A DNA stretch of 64,000 nt from the IMG/VR virus record IMGVR_UViG_3300025416_000002, positions 1-64,000 of that record; one strand, written 5' to 3'. The position numbers and the translations under genes were made by a program. A model generated the notes under the pieces. That model searched no databases, was not told the DNA's origin, and saw nothing but the letters and a program-made list of their open reading frames with translations. Source of the DNA: a virus. Taxonomy: Duplodnaviria > Caudoviricetes. Below, piece after piece: positions 8,587 through 63,700 of this stretch; position 1 is the first letter of the stretch; the number at the start of each line of letters is the position of its first letter.

Positions 8587-8605
8587 TTCTGAAAGGAATA
8601 TGAAA

Positions 8606-9619
8606 ATGTCAACAATTCACCCTAATGGCGGTGTTGCCGATCACTTGGCTCCCCGTACAGCAAAGAAGTCTGACGACTACGTCGCCAGCATCGTAGAGGC
8701 TCAAGAGCGTCTCGCCTCGGCTACTGGTCGTAAGACTGCTACCCGTGAAGAGAAGCAACGTCGTCTCGCCGGTATCCTTGCCGACAAGGACAACTACATG
8801 GTCCGTCTGGGTCAGGGTATGATTGGTCCTATCCAGCTGAAGCTCCGTTACCAGGGTATGACCCGTAACGTCCTCCTGGAAGACCCGCTCACCCCTGGTG
8901 TCCCCGTCATGTACGACGTCCTCGACGAGTACGGTCAGGCCTACATTCTTTCCGGTAACGAAGGTGAAGTCCGCGTGACACCCTTCGAAGGTAAGAAGGT
9001 TCCAGTCCGTTTGTTCCGTATCGCTACCTTCCCTCAGATCAAGAAGGAAGACTTGTGGTACCTCCGCGTGAATATCGTAGAGTACGCACAGGACATGTCA
9101 AAGCAGGCAATCATGATGCAGGAAGACGCCCGTTTGATCACGGTGCTCGAAGCTGCTATCAACAACTACGCGGTTGACCCTAACCACGTTGTGTCGCCTA
9201 ACCACATCGTTAACGAGCTCTCGGGTTACATTACTCCTGACTCACTGTACGACCTCGTTGCACTCATTGAAGTTCACCAGTTGGAAGCTTCAAGACTGTT
9301 GTTCAACCCAATCGACTACCGTGACCTCTACAAGTGGGACATCAACCAGACCGGCTGGGCCTTCAAGGACCGTGTTGTTGCTGGTGAGCGCATCGTTCAA
9401 TTCGGTGGTTTCCAAGTTCAGCGTTCGATCGAAGTGCCTCAGGGTACTGTTTACATGACCCCAAGCCCCGAGTTCCTCGGTGTGTTCCCCGTCATGTACT
9501 CGCTCGACGTCGAAGAGAACCACACCCCAGAGAAGTTCCACAAGGGTTGGGTCATGGACGAGCTCGTCTCCGAGATCGTTCTCAACCCCCGTGGTCTGGG
9601 CAAGATCGTTAAGGCTTAG
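8606..9619 (+). CDS. Major capsid protein (HK97 fold, Bxz1-like)
   Basis: Motifs MIGPIQLKLRYQG, FRIATFPQIKKEDL and FLGVFPVMYSLDVEEN match my recollection of Bxz1-type capsid proteins; GAAAGGA SD at 8591-8597 favours ATG 8606. Confidence 0.92.
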   Translation: MSTIHPNGGVADHLAPRTAKKSDDYVASIVEAQERLASATGRKTATREEKQRRLAGILADKDNYMVRLGQGMIGPIQLKLRYQGMTRNVLLEDPLTPGVPVMYDVLDEYGQAYILSGNEGEVRVTPFEGKKVPVRLFRIATFPQIKKEDLWYLRVNIVEYAQDMSKQAIMMQEDARLITVLEAAINNYAVDPNHVVSPNHIVNELSGYITPDSLYDLVALIEVHQLEASRLLFNPIDYRDLYKWDINQTGWAFKDRVVAGERIVQFGGFQVQRSIEVPQGTVYMTPSPEFLGVFPVMYSLDVEENHTPEKFHKGWVMDELVSEIVLNPRGLGKIVKA

Positions 9620-24945: not shown

Positions 24946-25944
24946 ATGTCTGCACGTTCATTTGTTATTCAACTCCAGCCAGGAATTGGCCAAGGTCTTC
25001 TCCCTGACCACCGCAAGATGCTTCCTGGTGTCCAATACGTAGTCGACGCTGAGACGTTCTCGCGCATCTCTTTGGGTGCTCGTCAGAACGTTATCACCGT
25101 TGTAAGCGTTAACCTCGACACGCCAAGCTCGACATCACTGGCTTCTGCAAGCGGAACCTACGTTCCTGCTCAGGCTTCCTCTGGTATCAATGCTCAGGCA
25201 TTCGGTGCTGGCAACTCGCCTCTTAACCTGCTTACTCAGGTTAGCCCAACCGCATCCTCGTTCAGCCTTGCTGGATTTGCTGCTCAGGGTTGGAGCGCCG
25301 GTGGTGAAACTGGTACCAACACTGGTATCGGTCAGCCACAGAATGCTCTTAGCGGTTCAGCTGTTAACGTATCGTTGACTGGCCCCGAGGGTAACCGTTA
25401 CGTACTTGCATACAACGGTACTTCTTCGACCATTTCCGGTGGTTGGGCTACCGTATGGTACGACTACAACAACCGTTACATCTCAACTGCTTCTGGTGTT
25501 AACCTCCTGGTTAAGACGGACGCATTGGGCACTTCTTACGCTGTTGGCGCGAACACAACAATTAGCGGTGTAACCACTATTGGTACTAAGCAGGGTGAGT
25601 TCGCTGGTGTTACATTGACGAACATCCCCGCCGGTAACTTCGGTTTCGTTCAGATCGAAGGTACTTGCCCATTCGTTGCTGTCGCTGCCGGTACTGCAGT
25701 TGGTGCTGTGGTCGCCGTTAGTGGTTCAAGCAACGCCGGTTACTTGGCTCCTCCTGCCTCCACCTCTGCTTCCGTAACAAGCCTTGGTGTTGTAACTGGT
25801 ACAGCTCTTGCCAATAACACTGTGGGTACGGTTCTTACCGCTCCTGCATCAGGTACTACGACCAACAACCAGTACTTCTCTGTAGTTGAGCTTCGTAGCC
25901 GTCGTTCCAAGAAGCCATACAACCGCTTCCTGAACAAGAACTAG
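24946..25944 (+). CDS. Putative minor tail/structural protein
   Basis: AGAAAGG SD; SG-rich; strong codon bias. Confidence 0.65.
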   Translation: MSARSFVIQLQPGIGQGLLPDHRKMLPGVQYVVDAETFSRISLGARQNVITVVSVNLDTPSSTSLASASGTYVPAQASSGINAQAFGAGNSPLNLLTQVSPTASSFSLAGFAAQGWSAGGETGTNTGIGQPQNALSGSAVNVSLTGPEGNRYVLAYNGTSSTISGGWATVWYDYNNRYISTASGVNLLVKTDALGTSYAVGANTTISGVTTIGTKQGEFAGVTLTNIPAGNFGFVQIEGTCPFVAVAAGTAVGAVVAVSGSSNAGYLAPPASTSASVTSLGVVTGTALANNTVGTVLTAPASGTTTNNQYFSVVELRSRRSKKPYNRFLNKN

Positions 25945-43966: not shown

Positions 43967-44365
43967 ATGGAAAAAACAACCATTGACTATACGTGGCAAA
44001 GGCATTCACTCTGTGCCACAATGGATTTAAAGCTCTTCTACCCTCCACAAGGTAAAAGATATTCCACGGAAGCAGCAGCAGCCTGCGCATCGTGCCCAGT
44101 CAAGCAAGAGTGCATTGATCATGCGCTGAAGTATGAAGAGTATGGCTACTGGTCTGGCACCACACCCAAAGAACGGGAAGCAATGCGCAAGGAGCTGGGT
44201 GTTGAACTGGTCGATATCTCCTACGAGTCTAGCTTAGTTCTTGCAGAAGAGGTCCGCAAGCACGAAGAATTTACCAACAGCCTAAAAATTAAAGGCCGTG
44301 GAAGAAAGCCAAAAAGCTTGCTTTTGCAAGACACCAATGATACGATCATCTCGGAGAACGAATAA
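43967..44365 (+). CDS. whiB: WhiB-family Fe-S transcription factor
   Basis: C...CASC-PVKQE-C four-Cys pattern and GYWSG turn. Confidence 0.9.
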   Translation: MEKTTIDYTWQRHSLCATMDLKLFYPPQGKRYSTEAAAACASCPVKQECIDHALKYEEYGYWSGTTPKEREAMRKELGVELVDISYESSLVLAEEVRKHEEFTNSLKIKGRGRKPKSLLLQDTNDTIISENE

Positions 44366-54928: not shown

Positions 54929-55236
54929 TGTCATCTCTTGATTTCTCATCTAAGATCGAAAGACGTAAGAAGATCGAAGATCGTATGAATAGCCTATCTG
55001 AGTCGAGACTCATGGCAGTGTCACTGTTCATCGTCCTCGTGCTGGCATTCGTCGTGATCGTTCCGGTATCAATCGTGGCTTTGCCATTCATGCTTGCATG
55101 GGATACCACAAAGGCTCTGTTGGAAGTGCTCAAGAAGAAGAAGGCAAAAGAGGAGAACCCTTTCCTCGTTGACTTCAACAGTCTTGACAACGTAACAATG
55201 GATTTAAAAAACTGGTTTAACATAGGGAATGATTAA
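54928..55236 (+). CDS. Membrane protein
   Basis: Long hydrophobic segment LMAVSLFIVLVLAFVVIVPVSIVALPFMLAW. Confidence 0.75.
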   Translation: MSSLDFSSKIERRKKIEDRMNSLSESRLMAVSLFIVLVLAFVVIVPVSIVALPFMLAWDTTKALLEVLKKKKAKEENPFLVDFNSLDNVTMDLKNWFNIGND

Positions 55237-55613
55237 TGGAAAAGAAGTTGGCACAATCAGGTGATATGGTCTTCGAAAGAAACCTTGCTATCATCGCAGG
55301 CAGACGCCAGGAAGTACAGATCTTCAGTGATGGATTCGTTTACAAGGGCTACATGTGTGGCCTGGACGAACAGTGGATCCAGCTGTACGGTCACGAAGAG
55401 AACGATCAGAATGACTACGATGCTCAATGGAGATTCCTGTTGATTAACAGGATCAACATCTCGGCTATTGGTCCTAACGGTAAGAACCTGACCGACCTTG
55501 ACGACGAGACTCGTGAGTGGGTGAGCAAGAAGATTCAGATCTTCTCAGATGTTTGTGATAAGTTTGGTTCAGTAAGAGGAGTAAAGAACCATGACGGAAA
55601 AGAAAAGTTTTGA
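55236..55613 (+). CDS. Sm/Hfq-like fold protein (putative RNA-binding)
   Basis: EVQIFSDGFVYKGYMCGLDEQWIQL (Sm1-like) and LLINRINISAI (Sm2-like). Confidence 0.5.
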   Translation: MEKKLAQSGDMVFERNLAIIAGRRQEVQIFSDGFVYKGYMCGLDEQWIQLYGHEENDQNDYDAQWRFLLINRINISAIGPNGKNLTDLDDETREWVSKKIQIFSDVCDKFGSVRGVKNHDGKEKF

Positions 55614-58391: not shown

Positions 58392-59411
58392 ATGGCTAAA
58401 GGACAACTAAAAGAGATCTTCGCAGGTCTCGATGCCAGAGTGGTTCTACAGGACATCCTGGGTGTAGGCGAGATCATGGAGAATGGCGACGAGTACATTC
58501 ACTCATGCCCACTACCGTTTGGTGTTCACCGCAATGGTGACCGTAACCCCAGCGCAAGCTTGAACAAAGAAACCCTTCTGTTCAACTGCTTCGGTTGCGG
58601 GGGTGGCAGTGTTATCTGGCTGGTGCAGAACGTACTCAACGTCGATCGTGACGAGGCCATAGCCATCCTGAAGAATGAGGTGGTGGAGCTCAAGGTCGTA
58701 GCGATCGAGGACTTCATCAAGCGTCTGGAGGGTGTCTTCGCTGCCAACCCTTGCGACCGTAATGAGATCCCCCACTACAGTGACAACATCATCAAGCGTT
58801 GGGAAGGTCCTTGCGACTATTTAACTACCAGAGGCGTCTCAGTTGACGTACAACGGGAGATGCGCACGGGGATAGAGATGGGTAGGCTAGAGATGGCTAA
58901 GACCCTCACAGGCGAACGTAGCGTCGCTGTTGACCGTGTAGTTATACCCCACTTCATGAACGGTAGGCTAGTTGGATGGGTAGCTCGCAAGGTCGAGGAT
59001 GTCCAGGGAGTACCCAAGTACCGCAACTCTAAGGGATTCCCACGGGGAGCCTGGTTATTTAACCTAGATAACGCCCGTCAATACGATGAGGTCTACGTAG
59101 TCGAGAGCCCCATGAGCGTCCTGGTCATGAAGTCCAGGGGCATCAAGAACGTGGTGGCTACCTTCGGTGCTAAGGTCGATAAGCAGCAGCTCAACCTTCT
59201 GCGTAGGTTCAACAAGGTCAACGTGTTCATGGACGGGGATGCCCCTGGTCGTATGGCCACAGACCACATCCTTGAGGAGTTACAAAACTATACCAAAATT
59301 GGTATAATTTTGACACCTGACGATGAAGATCCTGCTACTATGGAGATCATCCCCACACCAACAAGTTCGTTTGAGTACCAGTTAAAACACCGTTTGACTT
59401 GTGTTAGTTAA
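58392..59411 (+). CDS. dnaG: DNA primase (CHC2 zinc finger + TOPRIM)
   Basis: CPLPFGVH...FNCFGCG; PKYRNS; VVESPMS; FMDGDAPG. Confidence 0.9.
   Translation: MAKGQLKEIFAGLDARVVLQDILGVGEIMENGDEYIHSCPLPFGVHRNGDRNPSASLNKETLLFNCFGCGGGSVIWLVQNVLNVDRDEAIAILKNEVVELKVVAIEDFIKRLEGVFAANPCDRNEIPHYSDNIIKRWEGPCDYLTTRGVSVDVQREMRTGIEMGRLEMAKTLTGERSVAVDRVVIPHFMNGRLVGWVARKVEDVQGVPKYRNSKGFPRGAWLFNLDNARQYDEVYVVESPMSVLVMKSRGIKNVVATFGAKVDKQQLNLLRRFNKVNVFMDGDAPGRMATDHILEELQNYTKIGIILTPDDEDPATMEIIPTPTSSFEYQLKHRLTCVS
59280..59308 (+). promoter_or_regulatory. Promoter inside the primase 3' end (upstream promoter for SSB)
   Basis: TTACAA-17 bp-TATAAT with TG extension. Confidence 0.7.
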
Positions 59412-59422
59412 GCTGGTACTCT
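59394..59422 (+). promoter_or_regulatory. Second promoter for SSB
   Basis: TTGACT-17 bp-TACTCT with TG extension. Confidence 0.75.
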
Positions 59423-59480
59423 TATGAGTGCAGTAAACAAAAACCAACAGCCCTAGGGCTTCTAAAAGAAAGATACCAAA

Positions 59481-60299
59481 ATGGCATTGCAAAAAGGCAT
59501 GGCTGCCGTAAAGGCCAGCATTGAACGGTCACAGAAGGGCTCAGGCCCCAAGACCTACACCGAAACCAACTGGTTCTATTGGACCGCAGGAGAGACGAAG
59601 GCTCTACGCTTCCTCACGGACAGCAACGACATCTTCGTAGTTCCAGTCCACGAGAACGTACCCACCCACGATGGCAAGAAGAAGACCTTCGTCTGCCGCA
59701 GTGTGTTCGACGCCTCATGCGAGCTGTGCGCTCGTGCCAAGGGCGAGCCAGGTGCGTACCGTCGTGACGTTGGTTACGGTGTCGCCGTACTTCGTGAAGA
59801 AGTGCGTGAAGACGGTAAGCTCACCGGCTACCGCGACGTTACTACCACGTACGAAGACACTGTCGACGGCAAGGTAGTTACCAAGAAGAAGCCATACGTG
59901 GGCATTGTCTCGCAGGGTATGCGCAACTTCTGGAACCAGATCGCTGTCATCAGCGAGAAGTACGGTAGCCTCCGTGATCGAGAGATCGAAATCCTGCGCA
60001 ACGGTCAGGGAACTGACACCACGTACATGGCATTTCCTCTCGACAAGAAGGAGATCGAGAACATCGACACCCGCTACGCAAAGTTCCTTCCAGATATCGA
60101 GGCTTTCCTCAACCGTATCGGCAGCCAGGAGTACTACGATGCTCAGCTGCACGGAATCGTCAAGGAGAAGGAAGTGAAGTCACCCTCCTCCTCTGCTTCC
60201 TTCGCTGAAGACGATGACGAGTACGGCGAGGAAGAGTTCGTCGGTATCTCGGAAGAGACTACTGCTGACCGTCTACGCCGGAAGATGGCTGGGCAGTAG
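59481..60299 (+). CDS. Phage ssDNA-binding protein (gp32-like)
   Basis: TKALRFL, C...CELC zinc site, RNGQGTDTTY, acidic C-terminal tail. Confidence 0.8.
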   Translation: MALQKGMAAVKASIERSQKGSGPKTYTETNWFYWTAGETKALRFLTDSNDIFVVPVHENVPTHDGKKKTFVCRSVFDASCELCARAKGEPGAYRRDVGYGVAVLREEVREDGKLTGYRDVTTTYEDTVDGKVVTKKKPYVGIVSQGMRNFWNQIAVISEKYGSLRDREIEILRNGQGTDTTYMAFPLDKKEIENIDTRYAKFLPDIEAFLNRIGSQEYYDAQLHGIVKEKEVKSPSSSASFAEDDDEYGEEEFVGISEETTADRLRRKMAGQ

Positions 60300-60305
60300 T
60301 CCCCT

Positions 60306-60383
60306 GTAGAGTGAGCCAGTGGAGTTGGTTGGTAATGTTTCCCTTCCTTTCTGTTACCGAATCAGCTCCACTGGTCACTCTAC
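60306..60383 (+). ncRNA. Long RNA hairpin with a pyrimidine-rich anti-SD-like loop
   Basis: About 30-bp stem with G-U wobbles and two G bulges; 16-nt loop GUUUCCCUUCCUUUCU. Confidence 0.65.
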
Positions 60384-60405
60384 CTAACCAACAAGAAAGA
60401 ACACA

Positions 60406-60696
60406 ATGACATTGAATGCACTAGAAGACAAGGTAATCATTAAGGTTGCCAAGGTCGAGGAGACCACCGAGAGTGGTTTCTATCTTCCAGAAACTGCAAC
60501 AGCTATGCCAGACCAAGGCACTGTTGTAGCAGTGGGACCAGGCTGGACTGCTAGCAATGGAACCGTAATCCCAACTGGAATTAGTGTTGGCGATGTGGTA
60601 TTGTTCAACCGCAGGGCTGCTCAGAAGATCACGGTAGACGACGAAGAGTATCTCGTCTTCCTGTCTGAACACATCCTCGGCATCTTTACCGAGTAG
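60406..60696 (+). CDS. groES: GroES-like co-chaperonin
   Basis: LEDKVIIK...TESGFYLP...GTVVAVGPG...VGDVVLF...EEYLVF.EHILG. Confidence 0.93.
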   Translation: MTLNALEDKVIIKVAKVEETTESGFYLPETATAMPDQGTVVAVGPGWTASNGTVIPTGISVGDVVLFNRRAAQKITVDDEEYLVFLSEHILGIFTE

Positions 60697-60751
60697 CGTT
60701 GCAAGACCTGGGTACGTCATTAAACTACCCAACTAACAAGTAAGGATTACC

Positions 60752-63700
60752 ATGACAGATAAACTTGTCCACCTCCACGTTCACACCGAACACTCATTCC
60801 TGGATGGACTTCAGACAGTAGACCAGCTCGTAGATCGAGTGGTATCTCTCGACCAAGAAGCTGTAGCTATCACTGACCACGGTGAGTGCAGCGGTCACCT
60901 TCGCCTTCAGCATGCAGCTGACAAGGCTGGCATCAAGCCTATCTTCGGTATGGAAGGATACTTCACCGACAACCGGTTCGATAAGACTGGTAAGAAGGGT
61001 GAGAACTACGACCACATGACCATCGTGGCTATGAATGCCAAAGGTCTGGAGAACCTGTGGTCTCTGTCGAGTCTAGCTTATATCGAGGGTAGCTACTACG
61101 GCAACCCACGCTTTGACTGGGAACTCCTGGAGCGTTACAACGAGGGCCTGATCGTTACTGGTGGCTGCATGGGTGGCTGCATTGGTAAGCACCTCAAGGA
61201 TGATGGTATCTACCAGCGTGCTGTAGAACGTATCAGCCGTTACCAAGCCATCTTCGGTGATCGTTTCCACCTTGAGCTGCACACTTACCTTGACCCTGAG
61301 AGCAACGAGTGGAACATGCGAGTGGCCGAAGCAGCCATTGACTACAGCGTTCCTCTGCTTGCTGTCAGCGACGCACACTACGCTGAGCCTGACCACTGGT
61401 TTGCTCACGAGCTCATGACTGCTGTGCAGATGGGCAAGACTGTTGACGACCCCACACGATTCAGCTACGGTCCTAACCAGCTGTGCATCTTCTCAGAGGA
61501 GGAGACACGTAGTCGTCTAAGTTATTTGCCTGAGTCACTCGTTGACCAGGCGATCAATCGCACCAACGAGATTGCACAGATGTGTGATGCCCGTGTACCT
61601 GGTGCACGCAAGATGCCTGTGTTCTACAACACTGCAGCGATGGACGAGCGCAAGCTCCGTGAAACTGTAGAAGAAGGCTTCAAGCGAAAGATCGAAGGCC
61701 ACGTAACTGAAGAGATGCTCCCTGTCTACCGTGAGCGTATCGAATATGAAATGGATGTCATTGTAACCCGTGGGTTCCCGGGGTACTTTCTAACCGTACA
61801 AGACATTATTAACTGGAGTAAAAATGAAAACTTTTTGGTTGGTCCTAGCCGTGGTTCAGTCGGCGGAAGCCTTCTTGCTTATGTTATGGACATCACGGAA
61901 GTCGATCCGATCCCTTCTGGCCTTATCTTTGAGCGCTTTCTTAACCCTGAGCGCGTCTCTATGCCTGATATTGACATTGACATGCCAAAACTTGAGCGTG
62001 GAATGGTGCGCGACTATCTGGAGCGTAAGTATGGCCGCAACAATATTGCTTCTATCGGCACTCTCAACACGTTAGGCGCACGCCAGGCTATCCGAGACCT
62101 ATGTCGTGGCATGGGCATCAGCAAAGACGATGCAGCAACCATGTCTGACATCATCGATGACGACTGGAACATCAAGAACCGTGGTGCAGACTGGGCTACC
62201 GTCTACAAGCAGTACCGTTCTGAGTACGCTCCATGGGTTACCAAGTACCCACAGCTCTTCGAGACACTGCCTGAGGTAGTCAACCACATCCGCCACGCCA
62301 GTGCACACGCTGCAGGCATTGTGATCAGCAAGGAACCACTCGTTGGTGCTATGCCATTGCGCTACAGCCAGGTGAACGATGATATCCGTACGCAGTTTGA
62401 CATGGGCGACATCGATGAGCTGGGCTTTGTCAAGATCGACTTGCTCGGTCTACGTACGTTGAGTACACTCATGGCTGCATTGGATCTAATCAAGGAGAAC
62501 AACGGTGGCACCCTACCTTTTGACCATTTCTATGAATGGAACAACAACTGGTCAAAGTATTACGACGACGCTGGTGTCTGGGACTCAATTGGCACCGGTC
62601 ACAATATTGGATGCTTCCAGATCGAGACAGGTTCCCTTAGAAGTTTGGTTAAGCGATTCCTCCCTCGTAACATCGAAGACCTCTGCACAATGATCGCTAT
62701 CTATCGTCCGGGTATTACCCGAGCGGTGGATGCAGAAACTGGCTTGAACCTCCTCGAGATGTACATGCAGAAGCGAGAAGGCAAGCGCAGGGTAACCTAC
62801 AAGCACCCTAAGCTAGAAAAGATGCTGGGTGTCTCGTACGGTAGTTTCGTGTACCAGGAGCAGATCATGGAGACCTGCGTCGAGCTCGCTGGGTATACCA
62901 TCGTAGAGACTGACCGTGTGCGTAAGGCAGTGGCCAAGTCTAACTACGAAGACATGGTGGAAGAAGCTGAGATCTTCGTGCGCAAGTGCGTGGAGAACGG
63001 CGTAGACAAGGAAGTCGCCAAGTCGATCTTCGATGACATGCGTGCCTTTGGTATGTATGGATTCAACAAGTCTCACGGTTATGGCTACTCCATGCTGACC
63101 TACTGGACTGCCTGGACCAAGCACCACTACCCGCGTGAGTACATGACTGCGCTGTTCCGTACCAACCCCAAGGACAATGTGGTCTACACCCGTGAGGCTC
63201 GTCGCATGGGCATCGAGGTGCTGGGACCTGACATCAACGAGAGCGGTGGCAACTTCACCCTTACCAAGTCAGGCAGCATCCGCTATGGCTTGAATAGTGT
63301 CAAGTACATCTCTGGCTCTGCCCAGGAGCTACAGAAGCTGGGTCCATTCTCAAGCATGGAAGACTTCGCAACGCGTGTCCCATCGAAGAAGGTGAACAAG
63401 CGTGCTGTCATTGCCATGATCAAGTGCGGTGTGTTCGACAGCATCTGTGGAGACGCTCGGACAGCTCTGCGCCAGTACCTCGAATACCGTAAGGAGAAGA
63501 ACCTTGATAATCCTTGTAGCCCTGATTGCCCTCATTGCATTGGACATCTCACTACATTTGATTGCTACGCAGATCTGCAAGAGAATGTCATGGCTCGCGG
63601 ACAAAACGAGCATGAGCTACTGGGGACTATGGTTAGTGTCGATCCTCTTGCTGATTATCTGGGCATCATAGAAGAAGAGCACAATTTCCCTGGAGAGAAG

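Follow-up and report, generated by a model that had tools for sequence, protein, structure and literature searches.

A conserved hairpin behind the ssb gene of an uncultured phage presents a copy of the 16S rRNA 3′ tail in its loop

Introduction

Directly behind the gene for the single-stranded DNA-binding protein (ssb) of an uncultured phage lies a long hairpin whose loop resembles the extreme 3′ end of 16S rRNA, which in Actinobacteria ends in CCUCCUUUCU. This raises two questions: whether the likeness is maintained by selection, and what such a loop might do. The original prediction for this locus, which is part of the 64,000-nt stretch of phage DNA analysed here (the window), considered the hairpin either a trans-acting small RNA (sRNA) that blocks strong ribosome-binding sites (RBSs) or a decoy for a nuclease that attacks the anti-Shine–Dalgarno (anti-SD) tail of 16S rRNA.

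Results

Structure, strand, and position of the hairpin

The four pairs of complementary arms between positions 60306 and 60383 of the + strand form one stem of 30 base pairs that contains one bulge and is capped by a loop of 16 nt, in agreement with the predicted stem of ~30 bp; the other sequence details of the original prediction were likewise borne out. The hairpin begins 7 nt 3′ of the ssb stop codon and ends 22 nt 5′ of the groES start codon. The RNA of the + strand folds with −45.3 kcal/mol (z = −7.3; none of 200 shuffled sequences folds as well), that of the − strand with −38.9 kcal/mol. Among roughly 8,000 sliding windows of 100 nt, the hairpin is the most stable fold of the entire 80,551-base record (best window over the hairpin, −49.3; record mean, −23.1; sd, 5.6). 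A covariance model built from the hairpin and seven relatives (R1) has a single match in the window, with 97.4 bits on the + strand vs. 26.2 bits on the − strand. Together with an excess of G-U pairs, which had already been taken as a sign of strand, these scores identify the hairpin as an RNA of the + strand.

The structure differs from a Rho-independent terminator, which has a short, G+C-rich stem, a loop of 3–8 nt, and a U-tract. No U-tract is present 3′ of the hairpin, where the sequence continues with CCUAACCAAC, and a terminator scan found nothing at the hairpin; U-tracts are also absent after the ssb hairpins of the relatives. Structurally, the 30 pairs interrupted by one bulge between ssb and groES match a processing hairpin of the RNase III type, i.e., at least 20 bp of near-continuous double-stranded RNA between two cistrons. 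Searches against Rfam 15 returned no relevant match for positions 59000–62000 (E ≤ 10) or for nine relatives (E ≤ 1), a megablast search of the locus against cultured phages gave no match, and a loose scan of viral contigs for the stem pattern yielded only chance matches.

The first promoter met upstream of the hairpin is the predicted one of ssb, and the hairpin does not have the layout of a free-standing gene. Because it starts only 7 nt after the ssb stop codon, it belongs to the end of the ssb unit rather than to a separate sRNA gene, either as the 3′ terminus of that unit or as the spacer that separates ssb from groES. The element is not a free-standing sRNA gene of ~80 nt. The complementarity to RBSs on which the proposed trans action was based is real but generic (see "Search for a target of the loop"). 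An open reading frame of 32 aa that spans the hairpin (60311–60409) was rejected as a gene; its counterpart in the close relative L160 reads the loop in a different frame and the frame is therefore not coding.

Genomic context and probable host

The hairpin is embedded in a replication module with the gene order Hfq-like protein, helicase loader, DnaB-type helicase, primase, ssb, hairpin, groES, and dnaE; nearly all open reading frames of the window are located on the + strand. Phages of Gordonia, Mycobacterium, and Rhodococcus share the order primase-(chaperone)-SSB-DnaE, and a tblastn search with the SSB of the window (59481–60299, + strand, 272 aa; PHROG 1607/14578/9721, "single strand DNA binding protein") matched solely the SSBs of phages of these three genera. 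The window also encodes a WhiB-family regulator, a marker of actinophages (43967–44365, + strand; PHROG 472, 66.9 bits). WhiB, the gene order shared with actinophages, and the similarity of the SSB thus give good support to the actinobacterial setting assumed from the outset. A scan of genome contigs with the SSB gave no match and no host genome was found.

The Hfq-like protein (55236–55613, + strand, 125 aa) matches the Pfam family PF23874 ("Phage_Hfq") above its cut-off (E = 2e-8). Its gene is located 4 kb upstream of ssb within the replication module, and a PF23874 gene is present in all five relatives tested, regardless of the type of loop that they carry. Hfq is generally considered to be missing from the host phylum.

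Promoters and translation signals around ssb, groES, and dnaE

The ssb gene appears to have a conserved promoter of its own, predicted from its sequence as an extended −10 promoter (TTGACT-17 nt-TGG-TACTCT; 59394–59422, + strand) that overlaps the 3′ end of the primase gene, with the boxes TTGACT at 59394–59399 and TGG-TACTCT at 59417–59422. The pattern TTGACN-17-TGN-TANNNT is retained upstream of ssb in most lineages. The ssb leader (59423–59480, + strand) is A-rich and contains the dyad AGCCCTAGGGCT (59449–59460) and the SD sequence AGAAAG (59467–59472). The SD of ssb is AGAAAG or AAAGGA in all lineages and pairs with the extreme 16S tail. About ten RBSs of the phage use AGAAAG, the complement of the terminal CUUUCU of the tail; the motif is indeed found in the RBSs of ssb, groES (60394–60399), and the gene at 24946, as had been noted originally.

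A second hairpin with arms of 14 nt is located at the 3′ end of the primase gene (59373–59421); its loop contains the −35 box of ssb and its 3′ arm the −10 box. Hairpins that overlap the promoter of the following gene appear to be a recurrent feature of these phages. Within ssb (60160–60205), an SD-like sequence, AAGGAGAAGGAAG, is followed by an anti-SD-like sequence, CACCCTCCTCCTCTGCTTCCTTC, with which it forms a local hairpin; similar pairs occur in relatives.

The groES gene (Cpn10; 60406–60696, + strand; PF00166, E = 1e-25) has no −10 box of the type TANNNT between the hairpin and its ATG, neither by inspection of the sequence nor by a scan. It is probably transcribed by read-through of the hairpin, which in the window lineage can then not be a full terminator. 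In the closest relatives in which dnaE directly follows the hairpin, the 3′ arm holds the −35 box of dnaE (TTGACT), and a −10 box (TATAGT or TATAAT) lies 17 nt further on, outside the stem. In the window lineage (the window, L154, and L160), groES intervenes between the hairpin and dnaE, and neither box has remained intact. The hairpin and its loop are nevertheless kept, which indicates that their function is separate from that of the promoter.

In seven relatives (L162, L165, L157, L185, L163, L179, and L207), the ATG of dnaE follows the promoter TTGACT-17-TATAGT/TATAAT at a distance of about 9 nt, so that the dnaE message should be leaderless or near-leaderless; dnaE of the window has the SD AAGGA instead. 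In L024 and L217, the dnaE frame stops after about 18 codons (MVDSYVHLHVHTEHSFLD*) and is followed by an open reading frame of 273 aa, which may represent an insertion (a mobile element or an intron-like element).

Hairpins behind ssb in related phages

Scans of viral and metagenome contigs yielded 103 loci that reach the 3′ end of ssb, with SSB identities of 60–100%; they represent 52 distinct downstream sequences from 37 lineages. All 103 loci carry one or two hairpins of 20–31 bp directly after ssb, whatever gene comes next (groES, dnaE, or another open reading frame). In an alignment of the eight hairpins that are homologous to that of the window, 93.7% of the cells are paired, compared with 24–46% in slid controls. 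Twelve of the 28 stem pairs are altered on both sides, a degree of compensatory change that was reached in none of 500 shuffles (4.7 ± 1.5 pairs). The alignment contains about 30 G-U cells but only about 7 A-C cells.

Among more distant SSB relatives (30–51% identity), there are only hints of a similar element (L272 and L275). Cultured actinophages also show hairpins after ssb, with C-rich tracts in RedWattleHog, Skog, and Pupper. In Gordonia phage RedWattleHog (L233), the loop of the long hairpin reads CGCACUCCCCCCAGGGCG; the C-rich sequences behind ssb in this phage, Skog (L235), and Pupper (L236) may be C-rich counterparts of the loop or may reflect base composition, as the intergenic regions look G+C-rich, and were set aside as uninformative in genomes of this appearance.

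A second family of conserved loop words (GGG-nnAA-CCC-GACAC and YUUGAUGA(CAC)) occurs in hairpins no more than 130 nt beyond the ssb stop codon of L155, L175, L176, L195, L197, L216, L172–L174, L187, and others. These hairpins sometimes adjoin an anti-SD hairpin, and the TTGATG of the family may serve as a −35 box in some lineages. In L238–L241, the major head protein is 98–99% identical to that of the window (8606–9619), whereas the SSBs share only 72–89% identity, which indicates that divergence or mosaicism is far greater in the replication module than among the structural genes.

Resemblance of the loop to the 16S tail

The pyrimidine loop (60337–60352, + strand; 16 nt) reads GUUUCCCUUCCUUUCU. 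Its final 8 nt, UCCUUUCU at 60345–60352, are identical to those of the 16S tail CACCUCCUUUCU, which bears out the mimicry that first drew attention to the locus. The 8-mer is no more frequent in the window than expected by chance (2 copies vs. 1.8 expected). The second copy (42219) lies unstructured inside a coding region and was rejected as a similar element. What is non-random is that UCCUUUCU sits in the loop of this hairpin and reappears at the equivalent position in relatives.

Conservation of the loop had been suggested as a check that could unmask a plain terminator or RNase III site. The outcome of this check favours the loop: all eight homologous hairpins share an invariant loop core, CCUUUC, while the stem covaries, and hairpins with stems unrelated to that of the window (L163, L198, and L206) again carry CCUCCUUUCU. 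Exact copies of CCUCCUUUC(U) are present on the unrelated stems of L163, L198, L206, and L207, in the last case together with CCUCCUU. The loop of clade B is CCCUCCUCAGG, which may be partly self-closing.

An unbiased count of k-mers in the 120 nt after ssb has CCTTTC, CCTCCT, TCCTTTC, and CCCTCCT among its top entries; the remaining top recurrent words are those of promoters and SD sequences. Heptamers of the 16S tail occur there at 6.5 per kb vs. 0.22 per kb in 120 kb of flanking sequence (about 30-fold) and are absent from the − strand. In 22 of the 37 lineages, the 120 nt after ssb share a 6-mer with the 16S tail CACCUCCUUUCU, a score matched by only 54 of 5544 permutations of the same composition (1%) and by none of 2816 random genomic 12-mers. 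When the loops were picked by hand, the true 16S tail ranked fourth among the 5544 permutations. Individual lineages keep differing sub-windows of the tail (CACCUCC, CCUCCU, or CCUUUCU).

The remaining 15 lineages lack the tail motif and show other recurrent loop words (of the GGGnnAACCCGACAC or CUUGAUGA type), which shows that hairpins behind ssb can do without it. On a tree of SSBs, the distribution of the trait requires a minimum of 7–8 changes, and the hairpin cassette can differ even between sister SSBs. The comparative evidence shows selection on both the stem and the 16S-tail-like loop. The preservation of the loop motif in spite of changes in the stem indicates that the loop probably has a function in translation control.

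Search for a target of the loop

The loop is more complementary to the RBS windows of the phage (−7.55 kcal/mol) than to background (−5.18 kcal/mol). The original prediction had singled out the RBS of the capsid gene, and the sequence GAAAGGAA is present at 8591–8598, upstream of the gene for the major head protein (8606–9619; PHROG 2522, E = 1e-108). Its pairing with the loop is not specific, however: the RBS ranks only 8th among 82, and GAAAGGAA is found in four relatives with any type of loop, even in one whose ssb hairpin lacks an anti-SD loop, i.e., it does not covary with loop type. The capsid RBS was rejected as a specific target; the complementarity between loop and RBSs is generic.

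For pairing with the RBS of the same message, as in icaR, a lineage-specific signal was not found. Loops pair with the ssb RBS of their own lineage at a mean of −7.6 kcal/mol, compared with −7.9 kcal/mol for RBSs of other lineages and −7.3 kcal/mol for shuffled loops. At ssb of the window, pairing with its own SD comprises only 6 bp (CUUUCU with AGAAAG), and the loop of clade B does not match its own SD. In a genome-wide scan, the strongest duplexes are located inside coding regions, and none was accepted as a specific target. Thus, own RBS, capsid RBS, and the genome-wide duplex scan all failed to provide a specific target of the loop.

Discussion

The interpretation that we tentatively prefer, with a confidence just short of even, combines two functions: a processing or stability hairpin at the 3′ end of the ssb message or between two cistrons, and a loop that pairs generically with SD regions. 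The hairpin RNA would close a short, separately promoted ssb unit and, in the window lineage, separate ssb from groES. Its 30-bp stem would most likely act as a 3′-end stabiliser or as a processing site of the RNase III type, perhaps with partial termination, as suggested by the long double-stranded RNA, the missing U-tract, and the read-through needed for groES. In this way, the hairpin could set the expression of ssb apart from that of the downstream genes. The exposed loop, which selection maintains as a copy of the 16S 3′ tail (CCUCCUUUCU-like), may base-pair with purine-rich SD regions in the manner of C-rich sRNA loops and the 3′UTR of icaR and might damp the translation of SD-led messages in general rather than of a single target, possibly with the help of the phage Hfq-like protein. 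Transcript ends, processing, and SD pairing are predictions from sequence. A general SD blocker would also affect the phage's own SD-led genes, which counts against this interpretation.

An alternative is a plain terminator or mRNA-stabilising hairpin whose loop serves no base pairing and persists only because it remains unstructured or was inherited. Position and stability fit a 3′-end hairpin, 15 of the 37 lineages manage with other loops, and no target was found, but we regard this explanation as unlikely in view of the loop itself: the order of its bases is specific beyond mere CU-richness (top 1% of the permutations of the same composition), its core stays invariant while the stem changes, and non-homologous stems bear the same 9–10-mer. 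Moreover, loops of 13–20 nt destabilise a terminator and would be unexpected without a reason, there is no U-tract, and full termination is unlikely with a groES gene that has no promoter of its own. It is more doubtful still that the loop is a binding site for a protein, be it SSB in autoregulation (for which gp32 of phage T4 is a precedent), the phage Hfq-like protein, or a host protein with affinity for the 16S tail or for pyrimidine tracts, such as S1, Rho, or a KH protein of the Era type. Such a site would suit a hairpin that belongs to the ssb message, an ssb leader that resembles an A-rich ARN tract, and the conserved Hfq-like gene nearby. By contrast, the retention of different parts of the 16S tail in different lineages is more easily reconciled with pairing to a variety of SDs than with a single protein site, and the GAUCA element recognised by Era is absent. 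A decoy function involving the ribosomal protein bS21 was rejected: the record has no bS21 gene, nor does the Corynebacterium control, and this also speaks against protein binding.

A more far-reaching idea is that the abundant 3′ end of the ssb message provides a trans-acting copy of the 16S tail that, with the phage Hfq-like protein as chaperone in a phylum without Hfq of its own, globally titrates SD sites. Translation would then move from SD-led host or late messages to phage messages that are near-leaderless or have a weak SD, such as dnaE in the close relatives; we consider this improbable. The probability is very small that the element acts at the DNA level, either within the promoter that follows, as an upstream element by the −35 box, or as a single-stranded hairpin for replication or priming. 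The 3′ arm does hold the −35 box of dnaE in close relatives, and the location inside the replication module (primase, ssb, dnaE) would be appropriate, but hairpin and loop persist in the window lineage despite the decayed −35 and −10 boxes, the ratio of G-U to A-C cells (~30 vs. ~7) and the bit scores of the two strands (97 vs. 26) favour one transcribed strand, and a likeness to the 16S tail would be meaningless in DNA. The least credit is due to the proposed decoy, in which the loop would serve as an alternative substrate for a host nuclease of the MazF-mt3 type, with cleavage of the anti-SD tail at UCCUU, and would shield the ribosomes during infection. Although the loop of the window holds UCCUU in single-stranded form and the host is probably actinobacterial, the pentamer is not conserved as a unit: it is present in only about 12 of the 22 anti-SD lineages and is missing from L154, which is nearly identical to the window (99.6% SSB identity), and from L165, L157, and clade B, which weakens the decoy idea. 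Furthermore, such a decoy would have to compete with thousands of ribosomes, and a toxin of this specificity is not known for the host.

Several known systems share features with the phage hairpin. The intercistronic RNase III hairpins of the early T7 mRNA and the sib retroregulator of lambda are likewise long hairpins between or behind phage cistrons that lack a U-tract and set the stability of the upstream message, a role that is proposed here for ssb; unlike the ssb hairpin, they have internal loops and do not present a conserved anti-SD loop. C-rich loops are found in the Bacillota sRNAs RsaE/RoxS and RNAIII. The 6C sRNA of Actinobacteria also has C-rich loops and is chaperone-independent (PMC6486639). 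In these sRNAs, C/U-rich hairpin loops pair with purine-rich RBS regions, as is predicted for the phage loop, and 6C belongs to the same host phylum. The phage element differs from 6C in that it is not a free-standing gene, consists of one hairpin rather than two, carries a CU copy of the 16S tail instead of a C6 run, and has no match in Rfam.

Further parallels are messages with pairing 3′UTRs: the icaR mRNA of Staphylococcus aureus carries an anti-SD motif in its 3′UTR (PMC3868564), and hbs of B. subtilis shows an interaction between its 5′- and 3′-UTRs (PMC5737220). As in these cases, the untranslated 3′ end of a message bears a pyrimidine-rich anti-SD motif, the long double-stranded RNA is a possible substrate of RNase III, and the gene product is an abundant or tightly dosed nucleic-acid-binding protein. 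The element described here differs by its location in a phage, by its presentation on a 30-bp stem, and by the lack of extended or lineage-specific complementarity to its own 5′ leader.

Regulatory RNAs with anti-SD loops are already known from bacteria; a narrow literature search, covering leading titles only, found none from a phage or from the message end of a replication gene. From comparative data alone, selection on an exposed imitation of the 16S 3′ end is evident in dozens of lineages of uncultured actinophages. Should the loop bind SD sites by base pairing, these viruses would have a simple means of tuning translation initiation or of taking it over, and the hairpin would be a tangible RNA with which to study riboregulation, which is little understood in this host phylum, by experiment.
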